Positions 2,764 through 54,896 of a DNA stretch of 64,000 nt are shown here, one piece after another (within the stretch, counting starts at the first letter, position 1; the number at the start of each line of letters is the position of its first letter). A program made the translations under genes and the position numbers. The notes beneath the pieces are model-generated. The model did not search any database and was not told where the DNA came from. It saw only the letters and a program-made list of their open reading frames with translations. The stretch is taken from the sequence record OQ921332.1. The stretch is one strand, 5' to 3'. This DNA comes from Escherichia phage vB_EcoP_PAS59.

Positions 2764-3390
2764 GTGAGCTTGTTAAGAGATTTTCAACACTATTATTGTG
2801 GAACATGGATTGCTCAGCGATCACCTGATGGTAAAAACCTCCCTCTATATGTGCTTGATGTTCGTCAGCAAGGTAACTTTGATATCGACGACTACTCACA
2901 CGACGCTGAAAGGTCTTTAGTGTTTGAGGCGGAACGCTGGACTAAAAACTCTGAAGGTCAGTTTGAACGTCAGATTGTTAGTAATATCCCAGTGTTTGAT
3001 CACAGCCTCATTCTAGAGTCTCCAGATGTAGGATACCTTCAGCATGGTAATAACATGGTGAGCTGGACCCATATCAACCCTGTTCGTCAGCGAGCTAAAG
3101 GCTTGATGGGGAATAAACTTCGTGGTGCTGCACCTTCTCTCGGACGTTCGATTCCGGGTGATTTGGTGTACAACTTGTTTAATCCAGAGTTTGAAGGGTT
3201 GGTTACTCGTTTCATCTATATCAACCCTGTCGATGGAAAAGTGTATTACAAAGGGGCTTACGTTGGAAACGTGCTTCTTGAAGCTGGCTATGGCGACAAC
3301 GGTCGCCAATCTTTAAACCTTCTGGAGAAGTTCAAGCACATTTCTTCAGACCTGTCATCATATAATGTAGAGTTGGTGGAATCACTATGA
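2764..3390 (+). CDS. hypothetical protein (GTG start)
   Basis: ORF embedded in the amidoligase island; no motif recognised. Confidence 0.4.
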   Translation: MSLLRDFQHYYCGTWIAQRSPDGKNLPLYVLDVRQQGNFDIDDYSHDAERSLVFEAERWTKNSEGQFERQIVSNIPVFDHSLILESPDVGYLQHGNNMVSWTHINPVRQRAKGLMGNKLRGAAPSLGRSIPGDLVYNLFNPEFEGLVTRFIYINPVDGKVYYKGAYVGNVLLEAGYGDNGRQSLNLLEKFKHISSDLSSYNVELVESL

Positions 3391-4487
3391 CAACCGTAGC
3401 ACAAGTTTTTGGATACCGTAACCCTCGCTTATCTGAACCGCATCCAAGCATTGCTTTTCAGTGTGGTGTTGGTATTGAGTTAGAAGTCGAAGGTACTACT
3501 GACATTGACGTTGATATGTGGGTTTGTACTGAAGACGGCTCTCTTCGTGATGGTTGTGAGTTAGTGTGTTCACGACCTTACAACGGTGAAGAATTACTTC
3601 GTGCTATTAACAATCTGAGTGAAGCAGTACAGGATTCTGGAGCCGAGGGGACTTGGCGCTGCTCCACTCACGTTCATATGGATATGCGGGACGCTGATAG
3701 TAATATCCTTAAGAAAGTTATTCTTGGGTGGACGTTCTATGAAAAGATGATGTTCAAATGTTCTGGATATCATCGTTACCGTAGTAACTTCTGCCCAGCT
3801 TTTGCTGTTGTTCAAGCTCAAGTTATGAATGCTTCATCAGCGTTCAACCGAGATGGGGAAGATTTCTTCCGTACTCTTGTTAATAGCTGGGACAAGTATA
3901 CCTCCCTTAACCTGTTGCCTCTATCTCAGTTTGGTTCTGTTGAGTTTCGTATTTCAGAGCCGAAGTGGAAAAAGAGTCAGCTGCTAAATCTGGTCAATCG
4001 CTTCTTGGTTCTCAAGAAACTGGCTGTTGAATATGCAGATTTAGATAATGAAGCTTATGTTGAGAAGTTGAATGAGCTGCGCTTCGCTCCTATGATTCAA
4101 CATCTACCTCTAGACTATACTCCAAGAGATAGCGATCTCACTGAAGGGTATCGTCTTGCCCGTGATATTCTGTTCTGTCGTGAGCAATCTGTAACTTTGG
4201 TTGGTCGTGTTCGTGTGCAACAGACTGGCCCTGATGGTGAAGTCCTTATCAACTTACGTGACATGAATGACTTCTATGGTTTCTTGGGATATGTGCGCGG
4301 TAATGCCAACACTGTCTATGAAGAGATCATGACCTACTACACCCCTCAGATTGAAAGCACTCGAATCGCAACGGTTCGTGAAATTCGTCACATGTTTGCA
4401 TTGATGCGTGAATCAGGTAGCAGTGATAATAACATCACTGATTACATTCCAGACCATCTGGAAATGCAATTAGAACGACTGCTGTAA
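3387..4487 (+). CDS. amidoligase-like protein (glutamine-synthetase-like fold)
   Basis: 'GVGIELEVEG', 'DGSLRDGCELV', 'STHVHMD' resemble the amidoligase/GCS2 superfamily. Confidence 0.5.
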   Translation: MTTVAQVFGYRNPRLSEPHPSIAFQCGVGIELEVEGTTDIDVDMWVCTEDGSLRDGCELVCSRPYNGEELLRAINNLSEAVQDSGAEGTWRCSTHVHMDMRDADSNILKKVILGWTFYEKMMFKCSGYHRYRSNFCPAFAVVQAQVMNASSAFNRDGEDFFRTLVNSWDKYTSLNLLPLSQFGSVEFRISEPKWKKSQLLNLVNRFLVLKKLAVEYADLDNEAYVEKLNELRFAPMIQHLPLDYTPRDSDLTEGYRLARDILFCREQSVTLVGRVRVQQTGPDGEVLINLRDMNDFYGFLGYVRGNANTVYEEIMTYYTPQIESTRIATVREIRHMFALMRESGSSDNNITDYIPDHLEMQLERLL

Positions 4488-8746: not shown

Positions 8747-8812
8747 TTTGCTTTAGCCTCTTCGAAAGAGGAGGCTAGTTCGAATTTAACTGAAACACTA
8801 AAAGGTAATATA

Positions 8813-9244
8813 ATGTCTGATAAAGTACTAGTTGCAACTTACGGAAGCTTGAGAAAAGGTCAACACAACCACGCTATCAATGCTCGTGCAGGTGGTGTGT
8901 CTATTGGTGAAGGGTGGACAGTAAACAACTGTAACCTGTATCAGTATTGCACAGCATACTTCCCAAGTGTATCTTTGGAGCATGACAGCAATGGTAAGCC
9001 TGTTCGTGTAGAAGTCTTTGAAACAACCCAAGCTGGTCTGGAAGGTCCGTATGACGGTCTGGAAGGTCATCGTGGTAATGATAACCCATACACCTTTTAT
9101 AAGCGTACACTGATTCCAGTATTATTGGACAGCGGTGAAACTGTGGAAGCGTGGATTTATCACATCGACGAAGAACAAGATGTTCTGGTTGAATCGGGTG
9201 ACTGGACAGCATATCTGGCAGGTGAGAAGGATGACAGTAACTGA
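8813..9244 (+). CDS. gamma-glutamyl cyclotransferase / AIG2-like protein
   Basis: N-terminal 'VATYGSLRKG' (YGSL motif typical of the GGCT/AIG2 fold), about 140 aa. Confidence 0.5.
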   Translation: MSDKVLVATYGSLRKGQHNHAINARAGGVSIGEGWTVNNCNLYQYCTAYFPSVSLEHDSNGKPVRVEVFETTQAGLEGPYDGLEGHRGNDNPYTFYKRTLIPVLLDSGETVEAWIYHIDEEQDVLVESGDWTAYLAGEKDDSN

Positions 9245-16110: not shown

Positions 16111-16602
16111 ATGAATAATATTGACCCGTCAATAAAAGAAGCTCTTGATTACGACCCTTTGACTGGAGATTTCCGATGGGTTAAAACTTATGGAAAAGGA
16201 CACAAAGGGTCTATAGCTGGTTCTGTAAATACCAATGGGTATTTGAGAATCGTTTATAAAGGTGCTAGATACTACGCTCATCGACTTGCTTACTGGTGGG
16301 ACACTGGATTGCTTCCTGAAGAAGTAGATCACATAGACCGCAACAGGATAAACAACAAAAGAGAGAATCTTAGGGGGACTACTAGATCAGGAAATGGCCT
16401 AAACAAAGTAGCTCAGAGTAATAATTTATCAACCGGAGTGATTGGAGTGACTGTCCATAGAAGGAAAAGTGGCTCTATTGCTTACCGGGCGGTATTTAAA
16501 TCTAAGCACATAGGACTCTTCTCAACCATAGAAGAAGCCTCTAGGGAATATAATAAAGTCAAGGAGACTTACATAAATGACAATCAAAGCTTCATTAATT
16601 GA
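16111..16602 (+). CDS. HNH homing endonuclease with AP2-like DNA-binding domain
   Basis: 'LDYDPLTGDFRW...AHRLAYWW...DHIDRNRINNKRENLR' plus 'GVIGVTVHRRKSGSIAYRA'. Confidence 0.7.
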   Translation: MNNIDPSIKEALDYDPLTGDFRWVKTYGKGHKGSIAGSVNTNGYLRIVYKGARYYAHRLAYWWDTGLLPEEVDHIDRNRINNKRENLRGTTRSGNGLNKVAQSNNLSTGVIGVTVHRRKSGSIAYRAVFKSKHIGLFSTIEEASREYNKVKETYINDNQSFIN

Positions 16603-18836: not shown

Positions 18837-19154
18837 ATGATGACCGATAAGGCGAAAAGAGATTATGCACAAGAACGAAGAACTGCAATCAAACGTGGGG
18901 AGACAGGTGTTGGTAGCAAGAGCGGAGATGCTCAGCGCCACCGTGCACGTCGCATCGTTGAAAAACGCGATGGAAAAGCTGCTGTCCGAGGTAAAGATGT
19001 TGGACACAAACGATCAATCAAGTCGGGAGGTTCTAATGCGTCAAGTAACTTACGTGTTGAATCAGTCTCTCGAAATCGCTCGAACGGCGGCAAAAGTGGA
19101 GATCGTGCTGGAAAATCAGCAGGCGGTCGCAAAGGAGCTTTAAGCTCAAGCTAA
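18837..19154 (+). CDS. basic Gly/Arg/Lys/Ser-rich small protein (frame uncertain; an alternative ORF 18865-19143 overlaps)
   Basis: AAGGAG before ATG at 18837; TAATGTATA element at 18796; terminator follows at 19160. Confidence 0.35.
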   Translation: MMTDKAKRDYAQERRTAIKRGETGVGSKSGDAQRHRARRIVEKRDGKAAVRGKDVGHKRSIKSGGSNASSNLRVESVSRNRSNGGKSGDRAGKSAGGRKGALSSS

Positions 19155-20088: not shown

Positions 20089-21783
20089 GTGATGGATAAC
20101 CCTGATAAGTTACCTTTCATAACGGAGATGACAGTCGCTGATATAATCTCAAAACAGGCGAAGCATGGAGTCAACTTCAACAGAAGAAACGCTCGGTGGT
20201 TTGTTCATCTTCTCAAAGAGATTATTGTCAATATTGATAAAGAACTGATTCCTCTCCTCCCCAAAATGCGGGTGGATGGTTCAACTTATTCTAAACCTTT
20301 TAAGAAATCAGGTGCTTTACAGAAGTGGCCTCAGCTCTATTGCGATAGGGTTGGTCTTAAAAGAGAAGATATCGGTGGGGCGTTTACTTGCGTTGAGTAT
20401 GTAGATTTTGACCCATCAAAAGATGCACGTATTAAAGAAGCCTTGATGGATGAAGGTTTTATACCTCCAGAGTGGAATTATTCTAAGAAACCTTGGAATA
20501 CTTTTGAAATTCGTAAAGCTATGAAGAAGTATGGTACATACTCTGCATGGTATTCTGCTTGGATTCGAGGTAACGCTAAAGAGAAACAGACAGCAGAGAT
20601 GATAGATGCTGATATCCGAAGGTTTTTGGATAAGCACTTCCGTTATCACACTGTCAATTATATGAAAGCCTATGTCAGCGGTTTAGGTCTTAACCCTAAC
20701 AGGAAGAAGCCTGTAACCTTTGATGAAATCAAAAAAGCTTTGGCTACATCAAACAAGTGGCCTACAGCCCCTACAAACCTTGAGGAGACTCTTGAAGAGG
20801 GGCTTGGGGGTGAACTAGGGGGTGTAGGAAGTTTGCTTAAGAGACGCGTTGTAGCGGCTCACAGGCTAGGTTTGATTAGCGGGCTTATCGACAAGGAACG
20901 TAAAGATGGTAAACTGTCCGCCGAAGCTAATAGCTGCGCTACTCCGACATTTCGTTTTAAACATCGCATTGTTGTTAATATTCCTTCTCGCGGTTTGTTT
21001 GGTCACGAGTGCCGCAGTCTTTTTCAATCTGACTATTCCTCAGACGATAGTCATAACCATCCTTTCATCATTACCAACCATATCCCTGATGGGTGTTACG
21101 TACGAAAGGGTACTAACATTATCTACGAAATGGGAAAACCGGGCAAGAAAGACAAACCAATAGGTGCTTATAAATTTTATGTACCTGCTGGTCGTGAAGT
21201 CTTCTTAGGTTATGATGGCTCTGGTCTTGAGCTGAGGATGCTTGCTCATTACCTTATCAAAGAGTGTCGTGAGATGCTCGCTGAAGCAGAGCGGGAAAAC
21301 AACCCAGCTAAGAAACGGGAAGCTGAACGCGGTCTAGCTTCTGCTGTTATGTACAGAGATATTCTTTTAGAAGGGGATATTCACTCACATAACCAAAAAC
21401 TTGCTGGCCTTCCTACTCGTGATAATGCTAAAACGTTTATCTACGCATTCAACTACGGAGCTGGTGACGCTAAGTTAGGAAGCATCGTAGGTGGTGGCTC
21501 TGATGAAGGGGCTGTCATGAGGGCAAGATTCTTAGCAGAGAATCCTTGTATTGCAATTCTTATTGAACGTATGACAGAGAAAGCACAAAGTGGATACATC
21601 TACGGTGTGGATGGACGTCGTATTACAATGAGGAGGGATGCAACTGGAAAGGTTATGGTTCATAAAGCCTTAAACACCCTCTTACAGAGCGCTGGGGCGA
21701 TTGTTATGAAGTATGCAATGCTATTCCTTAATAAATGGATTGAGCGTGATGGTGTTCGTTGTGCGAAGGTTATTGACATGCAT
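20089..21783 (+). CDS. DNA polymerase (family A, T7-like), polymerase domain exon 1
   Basis: Motif A 'YDGSGLELRMLAHY', motif B 'RDNAKTFIYAFNYGAGDAKLG', 'ALNTLLQSAGA' as in T7 gp5; frame runs into intron (stop at 21811). Confidence 0.8.
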
Positions 21784-22390
21784 AAACTTCATTGTGCATG
21801 TAAAAGTTGGTGAACTCGGTGAAACCCGACCATTAAGTTGAGGGCAATACCGAGCTAAGCTATTAGGAGGTGATATGGCTAAGAAAGATCTAGTGTTAGA
21901 AACTACTGACACAGGATGTATCATCCCTATCTCACACAAACTTAATAAAGATGGTTACTTCAGAAAGGTAATAGATGGCAAATGGGTCATGTATCACCGA
22001 TACGTCATGGAAGAAAAGTTTGGAAAGATTCCTGATGGGTTTGAAGTAAACCATAAATGCAAGAACAGAGCTTGCTGTAACACAGACCACCTAGAGATTC
22101 TATGGGGGAGTGCTCATGCAATAGAATCCAATACAGGTAGAAACAGAGAAAGACAGGAAGCTGCTAAAGAATTCTGGCTTAATAATGAATGTACCGGTGT
22201 TGCTCTTGCGGAAAGATTTGGTGTGAGCTTTGGAATCGCTTGTAGATGGATTCGAAAGTGGAAAGTGTAGAGACTATCCTTTGGGAGTAGGGGGTTAACA
22301 GGGAAACCCTCGAAGCGCCAACAACAGCAAATTAGCTATGCTGTTATGATATAGTCCGATACCCGAAGTAATTTGGGAATAACATAAATG
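21784..22390 (+). mobile_element. group I intron (IA-like) carrying an HNH endonuclease ORF
   Basis: 5' exon ends in U; P1 pairing of AUGCAU (21778-83) with GUGCAU (21794-99); R-like 'AGAGACUAUC' (about 22266-75) and S-like 'AUGAUAUAGUCC' (about 22346-58); terminal G at 22390. Confidence 0.6.
21875..22270 (+). CDS. intron-encoded HNH homing endonuclease
   Basis: 'EVNHKCKNRACCNTDHLEILWGS'; AGGAGG before ATG. Confidence 0.7.
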   Translation: MAKKDLVLETTDTGCIIPISHKLNKDGYFRKVIDGKWVMYHRYVMEEKFGKIPDGFEVNHKCKNRACCNTDHLEILWGSAHAIESNTGRNRERQEAAKEFWLNNECTGVALAERFGVSFGIACRWIRKWKV

Positions 22391-22543
22391 GATGAAGGTC
22401 AGTTCACTGTACATCGTGATGATGTTAACAAACTTCGTACCCTCACTGAAGAGTGTGTTCGTAAAGCAGGAGAGTACCTCAAGATGGAATGTCCTCTGGC
22501 ATCTGATTGCAAAATTGGATTAAACTGGAATCACACCCACTAA
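22391..22543 (+). CDS. DNA polymerase exon 2 (motif C and C-terminus)
   Basis: Splicing gives '...VIDMH|DEGQF...' restoring HDE; ends 'KIGLNWNHTH' like family-A polymerase C-termini. Confidence 0.6.
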   Translation, partial: DEGQFTVHRDDVNKLRTLTEECVRKAGEYLKMECPLASDCKIGLNWNHTH

Positions 22544-22560
22544 TTTGTAGTGGAGGAATA

Positions 22561-22752
22561 ATGACTAGACATGTACATGAAACATGGGCCATTACGGGAG
22601 CAAAAGATGCAATTGTTTGCTGTAATGGACATTTCTGCATCTATAACACAGAAAGAAAAGCTATTCAAGAAGCGGCTGAGTTAATGGAAGAGTTTCCTGA
22701 TAAAGATTTCTCCATTAAGAATTTAACCATCAATCTCCCGTGGAAGAGCTGA
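22561..22752 (+). CDS. hypothetical small protein
   Basis: GGAGGAATA before ATG at 22561. Confidence 0.4.
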   Translation: MTRHVHETWAITGAKDAIVCCNGHFCIYNTERKAIQEAAELMEEFPDKDFSIKNLTINLPWKS

Positions 22753-23107: not shown

Positions 23108-23353
23108 ATGATGACTTTAACATCTAAAGAATTAAAAGAGACTTTGGAAACAACTGAAGGTAAGCAATTCTTTGTTGCACAGATTCATTCTATGGGCAAA
23201 GATTCACTACGTCAGGCTTTGTATGAACTAACTACTGCGGTTCTTCAAACAGAAGCTGACGCTGAAGAAGCTCTAATTAAGCTAGAAGCCGCTCAGGCTG
23301 AAATTAATGGTTTGAAAGTTCGTATCAGTGAACTGGAAACACAGAATAAATAA
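23108..23353 (+). CDS. hypothetical coiled-coil protein
   Basis: ORF followed by terminator. Confidence 0.4.
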   Translation: MMTLTSKELKETLETTEGKQFFVAQIHSMGKDSLRQALYELTTAVLQTEADAEEALIKLEAAQAEINGLKVRISELETQNK

Positions 23354-23378
23354 GCTACCTTCGGGTGGCTTTTCTTGT
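23353..23378 (+). terminator. intrinsic terminator AGCUACC-UUCG-GGUGGCU plus U-run
   Basis: Read directly; after ORF 23108-23353. Confidence 0.6.
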
Positions 23379-23391
23379 CTAAGAGGCTAGT

Positions 23392-23784
23392 ATGAATATT
23401 GGTTTAGATTATGATGATACTTTTACAGTGGACAAGGAGATGTGGACCCACATTGTAGGTCTTATGAAATCTCGTGGACATGATGTTCGTATCGTCACTT
23501 ATCGTTTTGCTCAGCCCAATGGGTATTCAAATGAAGAGCTTCTAGCAGATGCAGCAAGTCTAGATATTCCTGTTATCTTTTGCAACGGTGTTCAGAAGGA
23601 TTCTGTCACTCAGAGCTTGGGTTTCTTTGTGGATGTTTGGATTGATGACTTCCCTGTCGGTATCCCTAAAATGGACCACCTAGATGGAATGCTAAAGGGT
23701 GTAAGACTTAATGACCTTAAAGCAGCACCTCCGGTAGAAATAGCCTCTCCTGTGTACTCTGAAGAGCCTCTGGTGATACGATGA
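23392..23784 (+). CDS. hypothetical protein
   Basis: ORF only. Confidence 0.4.
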   Translation: MNIGLDYDDTFTVDKEMWTHIVGLMKSRGHDVRIVTYRFAQPNGYSNEELLADAASLDIPVIFCNGVQKDSVTQSLGFFVDVWIDDFPVGIPKMDHLDGMLKGVRLNDLKAAPPVEIASPVYSEEPLVIR

Positions 23785-28647: not shown

Positions 28648-29243
28648 TGAGTAAACCTTTAGTAGTAATCCTAAATGGACCTCCGGGTTGTGGTAAAGAT
28701 ACAATCGCTAATGCTTGGTTAGAGAAGACAGCTGGTAACACTGAGTTTAGACCGCATGTAAAGGCTTTTAAGGAGCCTATGTATCGGGTGGCTGCTGCTG
28801 CATTAGGTCTCCCTCTTTATGAGTTCATGGAGCTGTACAACGACCGTGAGTGGAAAGAACTTGTCCGTCCTGAATGGGGAGGTAAGTCAGTTCGAGATTT
28901 GATGATTGCAACTAGCGAGAATTATCTGAAGCCTATGTTTGGTGAGACCTGCATGGGTAAACTTGCTGTTAGCAGTATCCAACAACATATCCCATCACAG
29001 AATGATGTTATCGTCTTCTCTGATGGTGGTTTTAGAGCAGAAGTTGAAGAACTAGAGAGACACTTCCATGTTCGAGTAGTTCAGGTTCTCCGCGATGGCT
29101 GCTCCTTTGAAGGAGACTCCCGTTCTTATATTGAAGGAACAAACCTACCAACCTACCTCCTCTTTAATGACCGTTCTGTAGAAGAGGCAGTTGAGGATTT
29201 AGAGTGGATTATTGAAGGGACACGGAGAGATCTCTATGTCTGA
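28647..29243 (+). CDS. P-loop nucleotide kinase-like protein
   Basis: Walker A 'LNGPPGCGKDT' near N-terminus, about 200 aa. Confidence 0.5.
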   Translation: MSKPLVVILNGPPGCGKDTIANAWLEKTAGNTEFRPHVKAFKEPMYRVAAAALGLPLYEFMELYNDREWKELVRPEWGGKSVRDLMIATSENYLKPMFGETCMGKLAVSSIQQHIPSQNDVIVFSDGGFRAEVEELERHFHVRVVQVLRDGCSFEGDSRSYIEGTNLPTYLLFNDRSVEEAVEDLEWIIEGTRRDLYV

Positions 29244-30054
29244 TGTAATCTATCCTGAAGTGGCAATTGTGGATGCAGATGTTCTACGATATGAAGTCGG
29301 TGCTCTTACACAAGAGCATCCTTTTCTAGACACAGGTCGTGTTCCAGTTGATTATGGATTCTTGATTGAACGACTTCAACATAAAATAGATGTAATCATT
29401 GCAAGGTCTGGTTGCGAGAAAACAATCTTTTACTTCAGCGAAGGTGGTAATTTTCGGTTTGATATTGCTAAGCAGCAAGGCTATAAAGCTAATCGACCAC
29501 CGGGAGAAAGACCTCACCACTGGCAAAATGTCAGTGATTACATTAAAGAGAATTACGAATACGTAGAAGTTTTTGGGAGAGAGGCGGATGATGCCCTAGC
29601 TGAAAGACAGAGACGTGATAAGAACACTATCATTTGCACCCGTGATAAAGATTTGTTAATCACTCCCGGATGGCATTACCGTTGGGCTTGCGGGGAGAGA
29701 CAGAAAGAAGTACCTCCTCACTATGTATCAGAGGAAGTAGCATGGCAGAACTTCTTCTACCAGATGCTGATCGGGGATAGCACAGATAACATTCCCGGAT
29801 GCGGTGAGAAGGTTGAAATGATGTGGGGTGGCAATCTAGTAATGCGTCGTAAAGGCATTGGTAGTAAGGCTGCAATCAAACTTATTGAGAAGGTATTCGA
29901 TAAGTGGACTCTTTATCATATTATACGAATGGAATACTATAAAAGGTTCGAGGAAGAAGCAGAAGCTAAGATGTTAGAAAATGCTCGATTGCTCTTCGTT
30001 GGACAAGCTGAAGGTGACCTCTTTGATTGGTCATGGTTAAACAAGGAATGGTGA
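29236..30054 (+). CDS. 5'-3' exonuclease / flap endonuclease
   Basis: 'LIGDSTDNIPGCGEKV...GIGSKAAIKLI' H3TH-type motif, acidic clusters. Confidence 0.65.
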   Translation: MSDVIYPEVAIVDADVLRYEVGALTQEHPFLDTGRVPVDYGFLIERLQHKIDVIIARSGCEKTIFYFSEGGNFRFDIAKQQGYKANRPPGERPHHWQNVSDYIKENYEYVEVFGREADDALAERQRRDKNTIICTRDKDLLITPGWHYRWACGERQKEVPPHYVSEEVAWQNFFYQMLIGDSTDNIPGCGEKVEMMWGGNLVMRRKGIGSKAAIKLIEKVFDKWTLYHIIRMEYYKRFEEEAEAKMLENARLLFVGQAEGDLFDWSWLNKEW

Positions 30055-30542
30055 TCTTGGATAGAGAAGAGTTAAAAAGGCTTCTCAAGTATGATCCAAA
30101 TAGTGGTCAGTTTACTTGGAAAGTTAAGAAAGGTAGGAAGAATGTTGGAGATGCGGCTGGATGCTTTTATGGAAAACATAGATACCGCTGCATCAAGTTA
30201 AATCAAATATTGTATCAATCTCATAGACTTGCATACCTTTACATGGAAGGTTACATTCCTGATTGTGTAGACCACATAGACGGAGACCCTTCTAATAACA
30301 AGTGGTGCAATCTAAGAGAAGCAACTTTAAGTCAGAATCAGTGGAACAGAAAGATCTCTATAAACTGCACTTCCGGAATCAAGGGAGTCTCTTTCCATAA
30401 AAGAGCTAATAAGTGGAGAGCTATTATTGGAGTGTCTGGGAAATCTATCCATCTAGGGTATTATGCAACTAAAGAAGAGGCTGAAGAAGCCCTGAGACTG
30501 AAAAGAGAAGACCTACACTTAGGCTTTCATCGTCACAAATAA
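30027..30542 (+). CDS. HNH-AP2 homing endonuclease (start uncertain)
   Basis: 'LKYDPNSGQFTWK...SHRLAYLY...DHIDGDPSNNKWCNLR' plus 'GIKGVSFHKRANKWRA'. Confidence 0.65.
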   Translation: MVMVKQGMVILDREELKRLLKYDPNSGQFTWKVKKGRKNVGDAAGCFYGKHRYRCIKLNQILYQSHRLAYLYMEGYIPDCVDHIDGDPSNNKWCNLREATLSQNQWNRKISINCTSGIKGVSFHKRANKWRAIIGVSGKSIHLGYYATKEEAEEALRLKREDLHLGFHRHK

Positions 30543-31418: not shown

Positions 31419-31922
31419 ATGAATGAAGAGAAGTGGACCCATTTTCTATACTCCTCTGAATCTCCTTCTGGATTTCTCTGGAGGAGTAAACCAGCCCCTT
31501 TTGTAAAAATAGGAAGCGTGGTAGGTACGAAAAACAAGAAAGGTTATTGGGAAATCAACACCAAAAACTCTGGAAGAATTAAAGCTCATCGGTTGGTTTG
31601 GGAGTACCATAATGGACCTATCCCAGAAGGGTTTTTGGTAGACCACATAGATAATAACCTAGACAACAATACAATAGAAAATCTTAGACTTTGTAATGCG
31701 AAGGAAAGTGCTAGGAATACTAGAGGTTGGAGCAGTAAAAGAGATTCTTTACCTAAAGGTATTCATGACAACTCTCATGGAGGAAAGAATCCGGGATACT
31801 ACCAAGCTCGAATTTACATATCAGGTAAATCTTACACGAAATCTTCATACGATATCTTATATTTACACAGATGGCTTAAGAGTAAAAGAGAGGAACATCA
31901 TGGAGAGTTTAAAAAAGATTGA
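31419..31922 (+). CDS. HNH-AP2 homing endonuclease
   Basis: 'SPSGFLWRSK...AHRLVWEY...DHIDNNLDNNTIENLR'. Confidence 0.65.
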   Translation: MNEEKWTHFLYSSESPSGFLWRSKPAPFVKIGSVVGTKNKKGYWEINTKNSGRIKAHRLVWEYHNGPIPEGFLVDHIDNNLDNNTIENLRLCNAKESARNTRGWSSKRDSLPKGIHDNSHGGKNPGYYQARIYISGKSYTKSSYDILYLHRWLKSKREEHHGEFKKD

Positions 31923-31994: not shown

Positions 31995-34900
31995 TTACTC
32001 CTTAGCTCGAACTCTAACACGGAGTTTAGCTTGACGCTTACTTCTCTCCAACTTGTCAGACAGAGAACCACGTTTGACTTTCAACTCTCCCTCGTCATTA
32101 TACTTCTCCAAGAACTGTAAATACTCTTGTCGAGTAGTTGTCTTGTAAGAAGGAATCTTAGCATTAGGATTCGCTTCAATCACACGTCTAATCTTAGCTA
32201 CATCATCCCTCCCTAAAAGTTTCCCTTTAGCTTGTTCTGCTGTAGAACCAAAGATCTTCTCAAGTGCTCGAGATTTGTTACCACCTGCCGAAGCAGCACC
32301 AAGTTTCGCAATAGCAGAATAATCATCAGCACTAAACCAAGCCACTGGATTATCTCCATAACGTTTCTTGTTCTCAGCAGCAGTCTGTAGAGCACGCACA
32401 AATCGACGGTTGTTACCAGCCTTATCTGCACCATGAACCCTATCTAGAACCTCTGCAACACTCGCCAACTCCTGCAAGTCTTTCCCTTCAATAAAAGCTT
32501 TCTCTGCTTTGTTAGCAAAGTCGTCTTCCTGCTTCTTAATACTTTCAAGAATATCAGAGTTAGCCTGAGATCTTTCATCCTCAGGTAGAGCCGAACGAAT
32601 CTTCTCCATTTCTTTCTCTTCATCTAAAAGTTTCTTAAAGTCAGAATCAACTTTACGAGCATCTTCGATAGCTTTTGATGTTTCTGCATCAAGGTCAGAA
32701 GTTTTCCCATCTGCATCACCAGTTGCCTTAGCAATCTCTCTTTCGATTGGAGTAGCTGTTTCATACTTCTTAACAAACTTCTCTACGTCAGATTCGATAC
32801 GAGCACGAGCATTCTGATGTTCCACTGGAGTCATAGGTTTCTCTAACAAAGCATACCGATTGTCCATATAAGAACCAGCATACGCTTCAGCATCCTCCCT
32901 AGAAACCCCCTTCTCTTCCAAAGTGTTGACTAAACGCTTATGAATGTCGTCACGTTGACGTTGAACTGCCATTAGGTCATTCTCTCGTTCCTGAGCTTCT
33001 TTCAGAGCCTTATCTCTCTTCACTCTAGAATCAATATCAAACCTACGGTTCATTTCCTCAGCCTGTTCATACATCCTATTCCACTTAGCCTCACGAGCAT
33101 CTTCCTCTGCTTCGGTCAAACGACGTTTGCGATCGAGGTAATCACTCTCAGCGTTGTGAATACGTTCAATAATACTACGGAAACGCTCTGGTGGTACTGG
33201 AGAGTTTTTATCATGGTGAGCAGCAAGCTGCTTCAAAGTACGACCTTCCTGAGCTTCTCTGACACTTTCAGGCAATTCTTTGAACATCTTCTCCATCTCG
33301 GACTTCTGAGCCGCTATAGCTTCCAAGGACTGCTTTTCAGCTTCCATAGCTGCCTTGGCATCATTACGAGCCTTAGCTCTGTTACGGAGCGTCTCAAGAC
33401 GTTCTTGACGTGCTTGCAAGTGTTTAGCCGCTGCTTCGTATTGAGAGTTCTTGTTAGCCTTGTTGAACATGTTAACTTCTCGGTTATATGTATTGATAAA
33501 CCCATCCCACACATCCTTCATTTGACCAACTTCCAAAGCCTCAACCCTTCCAGCTTTCTCTGAAGATTTAAACTTACTCTCCACGAAGTCTTCCATAATC
33601 CTACGCATAGCATCTTTCTGAGCAGGACGTAACGGTTCTGCATCAAGCAGTGTACCAATTTCATCCTGAAGCTCTTTCTTCTGATCTACCAGTTTAGGAG
33701 CATCTTTCTTGTCAAAAGCTTTATTCTCTTCCAGAGCCTCTCGATAGAGACGGTCAAATTCATCATCTCTCTGTTTCTGATATAAACGCTCAGCTCTTCG
33801 TTTCAGTGAGTCTAGACTTGTGACGTTTCCACCCAAACCCTTCTCTTCAGCACGTAAAGCCTTAGTAGCAATATCAGAAGGCAACCCACGCTCTTTTACC
33901 CAATCAGCAAAAGAAGAACGAACATGTTGAGACTTAGCAGAAGCAATACCTTGCTGTGAAGCTAGCTGGTTTCTAGCCATCTCTTCATGACGCTGTGTGT
34001 TGTTTGCTTGGTCTTCCTGACGGATACGACGCATAAGCTCTTTAGGGTCTCCTTTATAAGAAAGGAAGTTTTCCGCAGTAGCTTTGGCTTTAGCAGCAGC
34101 CGAATACAAAGAACGAGCAAATCGGTCAGCACGATCTTTTGTTGCCTGACGGGCAGCAGTTGACATAGAAGCCAGACGCTCTACACCGAGTGATGGTTTA
34201 ACAGGCTCAGGAGCCTTCTCAGGAGCTTTGGGCGCACGAGCAGGTAATGGCTCAGGTTTCTCTTGAGGTTCCTCTACGGTCTTCTCAGGAGCTTCTTTAG
34301 CACGTTCTGCTTCCTCTGCTTCTTGACGTTTCTTCGCTTCTGCTACAGCTCTGCGCTGAGCTACTAGTTCTCTTGCTGTCAGTGCTTCTTGCTGTGGTTC
34401 AGGTTCTGGAGTAGTGCTTTCTTGAGCCTGAGCAGCTTCCGCTTCTTGACGTCTAAGTTCTGCTTGTTGTAGAGCACGTCTTTGAGCAACTAAATCTCTT
34501 GCCGTAAGAGGTGTTTCAGTAGGAGCTGGAGAGGAAGGAATTTCTTCCGTCACAGTAGTAGCAGAAGGCTCCTCACGAACCGGTTCGGAAGGGGCATCAT
34601 TTTGGGTACGGAATTTGATGTCTTCTGTGGTTGGTTCTTCTTCCATTTTTGCTCTTGCTTCTTCGGCTTGAGTTCTAGCTCGTTGTACTTCTAAATCCGC
34701 TCTAGCCAAAGAACGAATAGCTTCACTATTAGCTGACTGTTGTTTCTCTCGTTGAGCACGAGCACGATCAGAAGTGAAACGATTAAGTACATACTTAGCC
34801 GCACCAAGAGGATTCTTAACCAAGACAGGAGCTGGAGCTTCACGGAAACCATCATCAGTCAGAGAGGTCCAACCGCGATCTTGGTTGCTCATGAACTTAG

Positions 34901-38192: not shown

Positions 38193-39164
38193 TTAAGAGC
38201 TAGCTAAGCCACCGATAACACCGCCAGCTAAAGCACCCCAAGGGCCAAAAGCTGAACCAGCAGCAGCACCACTCGCAGCACCGCCTAGGAAGCCTCCACT
38301 ACCACCAGATGTTTTAGTAGTTGTGGTTGTTCCCAAAGCCCCGTTAAGAACCCCGGCAGCACCTAGTTGATTGTTAATATCCTGCCAACCCCAATTAGCA
38401 GCATTCTGAGCATTCTCATAAGCATTGTTCAAATCAGACTGCTGTTGTTGCTGCTGTTGCAGTCCTGCATTCCACTGATTCATCATTTGCTGTTGTGATA
38501 GCTGACCAGCTTGGTTTCCTAGATTAGCAAGGTTGGAGCCAATGTTAGATAAACCACCTAAAGCAGATGCTTGTGTTTGTCTATTACCAGAAAGAATGTT
38601 CTGTGCTTGAGTTAGAGCAGAGTCATAGGCACTATTAGTAATATTAGTTGCTGTGTTCTGCATCTGGTTCAGAGCATCACCCTGAGCAAAAGATTTAGCC
38701 ATACGTGCACCAGAACCTTGCTGACCAGCAAACTGCTGAGAGATTTGAGGAAGTGCATTCCTAGCCAAACTCTGTTGGGTTTGTTCATTATTCGCTGCAA
38801 TAGCTGCTTGCACAGCCTCGTCGTCATAGAGCTGGCCTGCAAGAGCCCCAATCTGTTCTCCAGTGATTTGACCAGAGTTTGCAAGGTTGTTATATCCAGA
38901 GTATGTGTTATCTAGATACCCTAAACCAGATTGAGCAGCATCCATGTATTGAGAAGAAAGTGCACCTAATGCACCAGATTGTGATAGGTTGTTCAGAGCC
39001 TCTTGCTGGTTTTGATTAAGTCCAACATTTTCTCGATACACATAATCGCCTGAACTAGTGTTATTAACCTGATTGACCAGCTGATCAATATAGGATTGAA
39101 TGTAGTCAGGTCTTGTCATTTTAGAAGTAGTCTTGCTACTCCCACCACCAAATAAACCTGCCAT
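38193..39164 (-). CDS. Gln/Asn/Gly-rich virion protein, tandem paralog 1
   Basis: 'M-x-x-FG...KTT', 'EALNNLSQS', 'NAGLQQQQQ...NWGWQ', Gly-rich hydrophobic C-terminus. Confidence 0.4.
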   Translation of the reverse strand: MAGLFGGGSSKTTSKMTRPDYIQSYIDQLVNQVNNTSSGDYVYRENVGLNQNQQEALNNLSQSGALGALSSQYMDAAQSGLGYLDNTYSGYNNLANSGQITGEQIGALAGQLYDDEAVQAAIAANNEQTQQSLARNALPQISQQFAGQQGSGARMAKSFAQGDALNQMQNTATNITNSAYDSALTQAQNILSGNRQTQASALGGLSNIGSNLANLGNQAGQLSQQQMMNQWNAGLQQQQQQQSDLNNAYENAQNAANWGWQDINNQLGAAGVLNGALGTTTTTKTSGGSGGFLGGAASGAAAGSAFGPWGALAGGVIGGLASS

Positions 39165-39613
39165 TATTTACCTCCTCGCAGATATTTAATTGCATTTTCT
39201 AGGTTTTCTGGTGAATCTTTAAAAAGACCTAAACCAGTGTTACAACTAGAACACAGCAAACCTCTAATGTGAAGACCTTCATGACAATGATCGACAGCAA
39301 GTCTCTTAACAACCCCTTTCAGGGTTGCTGTCTCTGGTTGACCACAGATTGCACAAAGTCCTTCTTGCTTTTCAAACAGTGCATCATATTCTGCAAGAGT
39401 TATTCCATAAAGTCTTCTCAGGTTTCGGTCTGTTATATTCTCAACAGGTTCACCATAGAGTTTTTTATAGTATGACGGACTGGTTGTTTCTAAACCAGAG
39501 CTTTTGAGTTTTCTTTTTTCTTTCTCTCTCTGGCGGCTAGCCAGATATTTAGATACATCCCTATAACCTTTCTTACGAGCAGCAGCTATAGTGGATTCTG
39601 AGTATTCTTCCAT
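39164..39613 (-). CDS. endonuclease VII-like (His-Me finger) nuclease, putative junction resolvase
   Basis: 'CAICGQ...LAVDHCHEGLHIRGLLCSSCNTGLG' matches the endo VII signature. Confidence 0.55.
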   Translation of the reverse strand: MEEYSESTIAAARKKGYRDVSKYLASRQREKEKRKLKSSGLETTSPSYYKKLYGEPVENITDRNLRRLYGITLAEYDALFEKQEGLCAICGQPETATLKGVVKRLAVDHCHEGLHIRGLLCSSCNTGLGLFKDSPENLENAIKYLRGGK

Positions 39614-53650: not shown

Positions 53651-54421
53651 TTAACTGTAATGTTTAATTCCGTATAATTCACGAGAGCTGTGAAGACGGT
53701 CGATAGTTCGAGGGATAACTAGAGGAGAACCTGAATACTCAGCTTTCTTGCTCTGTTCAACTACTTCATCTAAGATGGCTTTCCCTAAAGCCGACCACTT
53801 CTGAACCCCATTATCATCTTGAACAAACAAGCTTGCATGACGTAATGTGAAATATAGAAGAAGCTCTGGAGCTATTGTTAAAATTGCACTTGTATCAGAA
53901 TCCTCATGAAACTCCGGAGGGTCTGCATAATAGCTAAGAATTACCGAATTCTCCGCTGGAATAAGAGGGCTTCCATCATCAGGGTAGACCGGAGTATCGG
54001 CGTTGATGGCTGGGTAGAACAGGAACCGACTTCCCAACCTAGTAAAACTCACCTCTCCCTGATTCCATTTAGTTGGGTTTACTGAGTTATTTCTTTTCAG
54101 CCAATCTAACTCTTCTGGAGAAGTTACTCGGAACATATGTCCATTACTTGCTCTCATCATCCACTGAGCTTCTAAGTAGTCTGGTGGAATAAAAGCCACA
54201 CCATCTTTAATATCTAAATATACTTCTTTTTCCAGAGGAGGAATTCGTAAGTTACGATAGATTTCTTTCTCTGCAAAGTTAATAAAGTTTGGAATCTGAT
54301 TAACAAATTCATCATCATCCCTGTCAGCCCAGAGGGACACAGCTTTCTTGAGCCATCCGTAGGTATTGATGGGATATTGAACGTCAGGCAACATAGGATA
54401 CCTCCTTCCAGTTTGTGCCAT
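53651..54421 (-). CDS. tail/adaptor structural protein (putative)
   Basis: Position between capsid and fibers. Confidence 0.3.
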   Translation of the reverse strand: MAQTGRRYPMLPDVQYPINTYGWLKKAVSLWADRDDDEFVNQIPNFINFAEKEIYRNLRIPPLEKEVYLDIKDGVAFIPPDYLEAQWMMRASNGHMFRVTSPEELDWLKRNNSVNPTKWNQGEVSFTRLGSRFLFYPAINADTPVYPDDGSPLIPAENSVILSYYADPPEFHEDSDTSAILTIAPELLLYFTLRHASLFVQDDNGVQKWSALGKAILDEVVEQSKKAEYSGSPLVIPRTIDRLHSSRELYGIKHYS

Positions 54422-54896
54422 TGATTATTAGGCTTATTGTGCTTGAAGAGACTCCAAACTTCCTAGCTAAAGCTCTAGCTCCGAACTGTCTGTCCCTCGG
54501 TTTATAGTTCTCTAAACAGAAAAGAACTTGTTCTTTAGTAAGTTTGGAATTAGGATTATCCTCAAGATTCCTTGGTGTTGAGAGTTTTGTTTCATAAGCA
54601 TGTACACAGTTTTCTTGTTGAGTACACCACTCTAGATTCTCAATCCTGTTGTCATCTTTTATTCCATTCTTATGGTTGACATACTCCTTCCCTTCTACTT
54701 TAGGAAGAAAGAGTTCAGCTATGACTCTATGTTCTAGGTAAGATTTCTTCTTGAAGGTTAACACACGATATCCCTTACTATTAATACATCCAGCACGTTG
54801 ACCTTTCTGTTTATTGAATATGTTACTCATAGACCAGAAAAGATGCCCTGTATTCGGGTTATATGTAAAAGCTCCTCTGAAATCTGGCATTGCCAT
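54384..54896 (-). CDS. HNH homing endonuclease with C-terminal HTH
   Basis: 'YVNHKNGIKDDNRIENLEWCTQQEN'; C-terminal 'ALARKFGVSSSTISLIINGTNWKEV'. Confidence 0.65.
   Translation of the reverse strand: MAMPDFRGAFTYNPNTGHLFWSMSNIFNKQKGQRAGCINSKGYRVLTFKKKSYLEHRVIAELFLPKVEGKEYVNHKNGIKDDNRIENLEWCTQQENCVHAYETKLSTPRNLEDNPNSKLTKEQVLFCLENYKPRDRQFGARALARKFGVSSSTISLIINGTNWKEVSYVA

Follow-up and report, generated by a model that had tools for sequence, protein, structure and literature searches.

Escherichia phage vB_EcoP_PAS59 (record OQ921332.1) raises a simple question at its DNA polymerase locus: how would the phage make a complete enzyme when the reading frame stops before the catalytic Asp-Glu of motif C and the missing C-terminus lies beyond an open reading frame (ORF) for an HNH endonuclease? 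We analysed a stretch of 64,000 nucleotides of this genome (hereafter the window; positions run along one strand, 5' to 3', and features lie on the + strand unless stated), and the answer that we put forward with great confidence is that positions 21784-22390 constitute a mobile group I intron of subgroup IA2, which parts the His codon from the Asp codon in motif C of a family A DNA polymerase gene. A preliminary description of the locus had proposed a group I intron with an HNH endonuclease at motif C, and the proposal is upheld here by exact boundaries, by an IA2 core with compensatory changes and by homology to introns of T7-like phages.

By sequence similarity, the window is a Suseptimavirus-like Escherichia coli podophage of the phiEco32-like subfamily Gordonclarkvirinae. 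A megablast search with positions 20089-22600 matched 85 phage records, nearly all of them Gordonclarkvirinae phages of E. coli, the closest full-length flank matches being Suseptimavirus EK010, E20-1 and the BASEL phage Bas86 (ca. 98% identity). Both 2-kb flanks of the locus are nearest to EK010 and E20-1, and in a local whole-genome comparison EK010 is collinear with the window at 93–98% identity except for a handful of indels. The polymerase ORF (20089-21813, with an ATG at 20092) reads through CAT|AAA CTT and ends at the TGA of 21811-21813. Exon 1 (20092-21783, 564 codons) contains motifs A and B and matches Pfam DNA_pol_A; it ends with GAC ATG CAT (D-M-H), U21783 being its last base and the predicted 5' splice site, and is 98.8% identical to the equivalent part of the EK010 polymerase. 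Exon 2 (22391-22543, 50 codons and a stop) begins with GAU GAA, the D-E of motif C, and encodes the same protein as EK010 with no residue changed, its DNA being 93.5% identical. The ATG of the 51-codon ORF seen at this end (22388-22543) is the closing triplet of the insert and is in frame with exon 2. All the coordinates in the preliminary description hold, namely the polymerase stop at 21811, the HNH ORF at 21875-22270 and the 51-codon ORF at 22388-22543.

The limits of the insert can be placed to the base, since the EK010 gene is contiguous at this site, reading ATGCAT|GATGAAGG, or in a wider context GACATGCAT|GATGAAGG with zero bases between, and in a longer one GTTATTGACATGCAT|GATGAAGGCCAG without interruption; its intron-less target sequence reads ...GTTATTGACATGCATGATGAAGGCCAG... 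The insertion is exactly 21784-22390 (607 nt), absent from EK010, E20-1 and Bas86, and the boundary cannot slide because the flanking bases differ at each junction. Its last base, G22390, the terminal G (omega G) of the predicted 3' splice site, is the last base missing from EK010 and is G in 13/13 homologues. Removing the 607 nt restores motif C as VIDMH|DEGQF, with the catalytic H|DE, and the exon junction 21783/22391 expected in the mRNA would read ...GACAUGCAU|GAUGAAGG... The protein tells the same story. Exon 1 alone matches DNA_pol_A with 53.2 bits and ends at position 334 of the 381 in the profile, positions 335-380 fall to the 51-aa piece, and the joined protein gives one continuous match over positions 143-380 with 86.2 bits. 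Spliced in silico, it equals the EK010 polymerase at 612/615 aligned positions (stop counted). The join of 21783 to 22391 that had been proposed to restore HDE is thus confirmed by the intron-less EK010 allele and by the continuous Pfam match. The alignment to T7 gp5, suggested as a check, runs through VHDE (AWVHDEIQV in T7) to the C-terminus, the break falling between the His and the catalytic Asp-Glu. The window enzyme consists of the polymerase domain only. Separately encoded 5'-3' and 3'-5' exonuclease genes have been described in the phiEco32-like phage group (PMC9965538), and the EK010 counterpart of window positions 29212-30054 carries the annotation 'exonuclease'.

It could be argued that no RNA splicing is needed, an endonuclease gene having landed in the polymerase gene and the two products, of 574 aa (to 21813) and 51 aa (from the ATG at 22388), assembling into a working enzyme. 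This is how GenBank presents the locus in SU7, ECBP2 and PE006, whose entries list separate coding sequences (CDS), two for 'DNA polymerase' and one for the endonuclease, without an intron feature. The insert ends in AUG (22388-22390), in frame with exon 2, as it does in all four Gordonclarkvirinae copies, and it is for this reason that gene callers give a 51-aa ORF, labelled 'DNA polymerase' or 'hypothetical protein', in SU7, ECBP2 and PE006. However, the break parts the His from the Asp-Glu within catalytic motif C, no clear ribosome-binding site precedes the ATG at 22388, and most homologues finish in AAAG|GAU, without an in-frame ATG, so that the terminal ATG of the window is probably incidental. 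A split gene would also leave unexplained 211 nt of non-coding RNA that are nearly invariant across divergent hosts and covary as a group I core. We regard it as very unlikely and return to the intron, for which the locus provides an argument of its own: the unspliced frame stops at 21811 and loses the catalytic Asp-Glu, and therefore a viable phage would need splicing.

Searches with the element brought in a wide set of relatives. A distant blastn with the intron matched 63 records (E down to 7e-51), and tblastn with the HNH protein found full-length relatives at 54–59% identity. Homologous introns are present in gene 5 of 13a, JeanTinguely, CLB_P1, VSG32 and others, and also in Vibrio phage Vp_R1. 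Thirteen copies were extracted, all of them (13/13) at the H|DE codon boundary and each with an intact ORF of 131–139 aa, and they were aligned with MAFFT without the ORF (alignment A1) under a structure built by hand.

The predicted fold begins in the exon. The P1 exon strand ACAUGCAU (21776-21783) pairs over 8 bp with the internal guide sequence GUGCAUGU, the P1 3' strand (21794-21801), and places U21783.G21794 at the splice site; the U.G is found at the 5' splice site of 13/13 homologues, and P1 pair 5/26 covaries (G-C in T7-like copies, A-U in the window). The pairing proposed earlier, GUGCAU with AUGCAU, was right about the U.G and understated the length of the helix. Directly adjoining the guide is the P10 intron strand CUUCAUU (21787-21793), which pairs over 7 bp with GAUGAAG of exon 2 (22391-22397), 7/7 pairs forming both here and in the remaining Gordonclarkvirinae copies. 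P3 is made of GUUGG (21806-21810) and CCAAC (22318-22322). It is followed by P4 CUCGGU/ACCGAG (21815-21820 with 21849-21854), in which all cells of the alignment pair and which is nearly invariant, and by P5 CCC/GGG (21825-21827 with 21842-21844), where all cells pair as well and which closes a 14-nt loop, L5; J4/5 (GAAA) and J5/4 (CAAU) complete this P4-P5 domain (21815-21854). The tentative P6, GCU/AGU (21859-21861 with 22264-22266), has its 3' strand inside the last codons of the ORF; it is paired in 92% of its cells and has a single compensatory pair (U-A vs C-G).

In the 3' half, the P7 5' strand GACUA (22272-22276) pairs with UAGUC (22352-22356), forms a pseudoknot with P3 and is invariant in the 13 sequences. 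Next to it come P7.1, UCC-UUUG-GGA (22277-22286), which pairs in 13/13 sequences, a GUA linker (22287-22289) that joins P7.1 and P7.2, and the P7.2 hairpin (22290-22311), which exists in every homologue with a different sequence in each. The P8 hairpin, AACAGCA-(9 nt)-UGCUGUU (22323-22345), stands at the same place in 13/13 sequences with five different stem sequences, and is followed by J8/7 (AUGAU A) with the P7 3' strand UAGUC (22346-22356), where GAUAUAGUC is invariant, and by the P9 hairpin CCCGAA-GUAA-UUUGGG (22362-22377), where all cells pair. P2 is absent from the window intron as its helices are read from the sequence. Introns of subgroup IA2 are recognised by P7.1 and P7.2 between P7 and P3', linked by G-U-A (PMC3428280), and the P7.1-GUA-P7.2 signature predicted here assigns the window intron to this subgroup.

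Whether these helices are real was judged from covariation. The pair count covers P1, P10, P3, P4, P5, P6, P7, P7.1 and P9; P7.2 and P8 differ in length and were misaligned by MAFFT, and so were kept out of the count and folded sequence by sequence. Over the 13 sequences 95.8% of the cells pair, and 16/46 pairs show changes on both sides. None of 500 shuffles reached the observed values of pairing percentage, of both-side-changed pairs or cells, or of the covariation score, and the observed number of further pair types was reached by 105/500. When partners were slid by 1–3 columns, pairing fell to 29–45%. P3 has all five pairs compensatory, 100% of the cells paired and five distinct strand sequences; compensatory changes were also seen in two pairs of P5 and in 4/6 pairs of P9. 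The guide tracks the exon in the same manner: ACAUGCAU faces GUGCAUGU in the Gordonclarkvirinae copies, the window's among them, and T7-like exon GUGCAU faces guide GUGCAC, and P10 likewise follows exon 2. The features of a group I intron, namely P1, P10, the terminal G and the covarying P4-P6 and P3-P7-P8 core, were found.

The coding part of the insert fits this architecture. The HNH homing endonuclease gene (21875-22270, 131 aa) lies in the P6/P6a loop, its UAG stop sitting 1 nt ahead of the P7 strand, and is preceded by a Shine-Dalgarno sequence AGGAGG (21865-21870), 4 nt upstream of its ATG; a GGAG/GGAGG motif stands before the ORF in 13/13 homologues. Residues 40-75 match Pfam HNH_3 (E=9e-12, 44.9 bits, cut-off 24.8), which bears out the identity given to this ORF in the preliminary description. 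The motif stretch ...VNHKCKNRACCNTDHLE... is kept in the alignment, with the His/Asn/His residues and the flanking Cys ligands present. Full-length identity to the intron ORFs of T7-like gene 5 and of Vibrio Vp_R1 is 54–62%, and a search of PDB sequences with the HNH protein found no relative. Against PE006, 34 codons differ synonymously and six nonsynonymously; on this sequence comparison the endonuclease gene appears intact and under purifying selection.

Inteins and group II introns, too, may sit at conserved positions in phage replication genes and bear endonuclease domains of HNH type, which is the point in their favour. An intein is excluded: the host frame is closed by a stop 28 nt past the 5' junction, and the ORF starts independently, with non-coding RNA on either side. 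As for a group II intron, no group II family from Rfam was found over the region even at E<=10, an ORF for a reverse transcriptase is lacking, and the ends of the insert do not fit GUGYG...AY. The probability that either of the two stands in place of a group I intron is, in our estimation, negligible.

The distribution of the intron suggests mobility. The insertion occurs in 10/85 related records (seven distinct phages). The window copy is nearest to the PE006 type, at 91.9%, and the exons of PE006 are only 79% and 71% identical to those of the window. An EK010-like backbone with a PE006-like intron is therefore what the window presents, a combination without a match above 92% in the collection. 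Compared with PE006, the ribozyme parts differ at 2/211 positions, both in the P7.1 loop, and the ORF at 47/396, so both the RNA and the protein of the intron look constrained in this comparison. There is also a local signal downstream of the insert: exon 2 has 10 synonymous differences from EK010 in 153 nt and exon 1 has 20 in 1692 nt (Fisher p=8e-5), with only two differences in the last 400 nt of exon 1 and ca. 1.8% in the next 1850 nt downstream of exon 2. Some of the exon 2 variants equal those of SU7, some those of PE006, and four are unique. A short 3'-side co-conversion tract from an unsampled intron donor is a possible source of this excess. Taken together, the discordant intron and exon similarities and the downstream synonymous excess suggest recent homing.

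Several observations weigh against a mobile IA2 intron at this site and are best considered together. Splicing, as well as cleavage by the endonuclease, is something that we infer for this phage. The Rfam group I model RF00028 gives 30.9 bits where its gathering score is 50, and aligns with the 3' half of the intron only. The register of P6/P6a is ambiguous, as a CUAU/GUGG pairing fits too, and one P6 pair is broken in each of 3/13 sequences. P4, P7 and P7.1 vary little or not at all, which makes them uninformative on covariation; moreover, kinship among the sequences makes the shuffle result look more significant than it should, and safer guides are the control with slid partners and the number of distinct pair types. 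Compared with the T7-like copies, L5 of the window is enlarged (14 vs 4 nt) and P7.2 shortened (22 vs 29–30 nt). Finally, the excess in exon 2 could be an ordinary, unrelated recombination patch.

The weak Rfam score deserves closer attention. At gathering thresholds, no Rfam family was reported over the whole 64-kb window, so that the covariance-model scan suggested in the preliminary description fell short of the formal score, and the refuting outcome named there, the lack of a group I hit, is half realised. In E-value mode, RF00028 matches 22271-22378 with E=1e-5 for the region and 5e-4 window-wide, the match being anchored on the GAUAUAGUC core, which agrees with the Rfam group I consensus, and it is the sole group I signal in the 64 kb. 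All 10 relatives scanned are also below the threshold, at 26–39 bits, including T7-like 13a, JeanTinguely and CLB_P1 (K1F type), Aeromonas PT2, Vibrio Vp_R1, Edwardsiella DT115P1, Klebsiella RCIP0053, PE006 and SU7. Because every relative falls short, we ascribe the deficit to the limits of a generic model where P6 holds an ORF of 396 nt, and do not count it against membership. The covariation over the 13 homologues and the sole group I signal in the window place the insert far beyond chance.

The sub-threshold score, together with the shorter P7.2 and larger L5, could also be taken as the mark of a decayed intron remnant that splices poorly and leaves the polymerase gene impaired or the genome defective. 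Yet every core helix is intact, and the 8-bp P1 and 7-bp P10 fit the local exons perfectly. The same variant occurs in at least seven phages that were independently isolated and propagated (SU7, ECBP2, PE006, pEC-N1203-2Af.1, 1-6af, 1-6bf and FH3), and synonymous sites of the ORF have diverged more than the ribozyme segments. We consider a remnant of this kind very unlikely, and the intron reading, with an element predicted to splice, is the one followed below.

According to the mechanism that we propose, a transcript running through the intron would fold into the P3-P9 core, with guide GUGCAUGU holding the end of exon 1 (P1) and the adjacent CUUCAUU holding exon 2 at its start (P10). Attack by an external guanosine after U21783 would free exon 1, which would in turn attack after G22390, so that exon joining would yield one mRNA for a polymerase of 614 aa. 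The HNH endonuclease would be translated from its own start and ribosome-binding site. In a mixed infection it would nick or cleave intron-less alleles close to TGCAT|GATGA, and repair from the intron-bearing genome would copy the intron, along with part of the flanking exon, into the recipient, i.e., homing.

On a larger scale, one intron lineage may have moved among at least three distantly related phage groups (Autographiviridae, Gordonclarkvirinae and, through Vp_R1, Grimontviridae), always to H|DE and with a retuning of the guide and P10, and in Gordonclarkvirinae may still be homing and act as a competitive weapon. Taken as a whole, this scenario is a tentative one that we would not favour over its negation. 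Within it, the spread across groups and the retuning of the guide are well supported, while the use of the intron endonuclease as a weapon against co-infecting relatives that lack the intron is speculation by analogy. A competitive role has been reported for the intron endonuclease of phage PhiPA3 (PMC11620839).

The identification has a bearing on annotation. Recognising the intron corrects the gene model of SU7, ECBP2 and PE006, replacing two polymerase genes and an endonuclease by one 614-aa polymerase, and averts miscounts in work on the pangenome and taxonomy of Gordonclarkvirinae, a group that is being developed for phage therapy. It also provides a clean natural example of unrelated phage groups in which one mobile intron family holds an identical codon boundary of the catalytic site, with compensatory retuning of the guide and a possible co-conversion tract. 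Intron-plus phages (that of the window and SU7) and intron-minus ones (EK010 and Bas86/87), at 93–98% identity, would make a convenient pair for homing and competition studies in E. coli. General knowledge of group I introns is left unchanged, the element being of a known kind and of a known intron family.

The rest of the window holds further candidates for mobile genes. Five free-standing homing-endonuclease-like genes lie in window segments absent from EK010, at 16111-16602, 30027-30542 and 31419-31922 (+) and at 39164-39613 and 54384-54896 (-); four are HNH_3 and one of Endonuclease VII type, and one of the HNH_3 genes also has a sub-threshold match to an AP2 domain (30.5 bits, cut-off 33.3). 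The ORF at 30027 overlaps the final 28 nt of the exonuclease gene (29212-30054). EK010, for its part, has an HNH-like ORF44 (EK010 23175-23727; site equivalent to window ca. 8791-8818) and a 508-nt segment with a 'baseplate subunit' ORF66 (EK010 34285-34793; window ca. 19126-19137) that are not found in the window. Each of the two phages has small mobile genes that the other lacks, and the window genome is heavily colonised by mobile endonucleases. Two other sub-threshold Rfam matches, ar15 sRNA at 20418-20500 (-), inside the polymerase gene on the opposite strand (30.7 bits, threshold 40, E=0.023), and ES003 at 4378-4440 (+) (25.3 bits vs 37, E=0.97), are probably due to chance.

Polymerase genes of these phages are interrupted at other points as well. 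KBNP1711 (apparently Bas89 too) carries a different insertion in the same gene within motif B, KTFIYAFN|YGAGD (2857-3709 of our locus L003), equivalent to window ca. 21466/21467, where the window gene is intact. It encodes another endonuclease, gives two RF00028 matches (48.1 and 34.7 bits) and seems to mark a second site at which group I introns occupy the polymerase genes of Gordonclarkvirinae. Among the Autographiviridae, RCIP0053 (locus L013, ca. 113-748) and PT2 (locus L012, ca. 327-549) have another group I-like element farther upstream in the gene, close to the AKTF of motif B, and with the H|DE intron this makes two introns in one polymerase gene. The H|DE introns of RCIP0053 and of Edwardsiella DT115P1 contain an extra P2 hairpin.

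How does the element compare with known systems? The introns of SPO1, SP82 and Bastille (I-HmuI, I-HmuII, I-BasI), of cyanophage Pf-WMP3 (I-PfoP3I) and of Xanthomonas phage phiL7 are likewise IA2 with an HNH (nicking) endonuclease and also interrupt a conserved motif of a family A polymerase, but within the fingers subdomain, at Pol I sites 674 and 676 (PMC3428280). None of our searches showed sequence similarity to them. The td, nrdB and nrdD (sunY) introns of phage T4 share the IA2 subgroup and the same homing logic. They differ in host gene and in endonuclease family (GIY-YIG; His-Cys-like), and our searches found no sequence homology to them. Closer to the window protein are the free-standing HNH genes 5.3 of T3 and phiYeO3-12 and 7.7 of T7, which belong to the same HNH_3 family; gene 5.3 of T3 closely follows gene 5, and its product has 44% identity across 64% of the protein. 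These genes lie outside introns and lack the C-terminal third common to the intron-borne proteins.

The copies in other Gordonclarkvirinae (SU7, ECBP2, PE006, pEC-N1203-2Af.1, 1-6af, 1-6bf and FH3) share the site, the length of 607 nt and the 131-aa ORF. Identities are 84–92%, none matching the window copy above 92%, and those of SU7 and ECBP2 are the blastn values of 84–85%, the ungapped figure of 30% being meaningless in view of offsetting 1-nt indels. The window exons are instead nearest to those of intron-less EK010, E20-1 and Bas86. No description of this intron was found in the SU7, Kuravirus-group and BASEL papers or in full-text searches (intron with Kuravirus or phiEco32), ECBP2 included, although the wider literature may hold one.

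The nearest described systems are the gene 5 introns of T7-like phages (phiI, W31, K1F gp5.3, 13a, JeanTinguely and CLB_P1). Several T7-like records annotate the polymerase as a joined CDS. Self-splicing of the phiI and W31 introns was reportedly shown by Bonocora and Shub in 2004. In PMC3428280 these two introns lie at Pol I site 881, serve as models for the structure of an IA2 intron and have their HNH gene (I-TslI) in P6a, and PMC4925675 regards the intron of K1F as a putative group I intron. The residue at 881 is the His of HDE, and the window intron sits at that same site. K1F, 13a and others served us as stand-ins for the sequences of phiI and W31, the CLB_P1 intron being of K1F type and near-identical to that of K1F in the blastn table. 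The likeness extends from the insertion point, after the motif C His, to the architecture (no P2, ORF in P6/P6a up to P7, P7.1-GUA-P7.2), to a homologous RNA core with long invariant blocks (66–69% RNA identity) and to the 131-aa HNH protein, 54–59% identical. The differences lie in the host gene, which in the window encodes a Gordonclarkvirinae protein with the polymerase domain only, in the retuned guide and P10, in the sequences of P3, P8 and P9, in the DH of the HNH motif, which is NH in the window, and in the status of splicing, which is predicted for the window copy. Vibrio phage Vp_R1, of the Grimontviridae, carries the intron at H|DE too. The earlier suggestion of a known kind of T7-like intron therefore stands as far as the intron family is concerned, whereas the lineage that carries it is phiEco32-like Gordonclarkvirinae and not T7-like: on sequence grounds, the window element belongs to the T7-like gene 5 intron family (phiI/W31/K1F type), in a different phage group.

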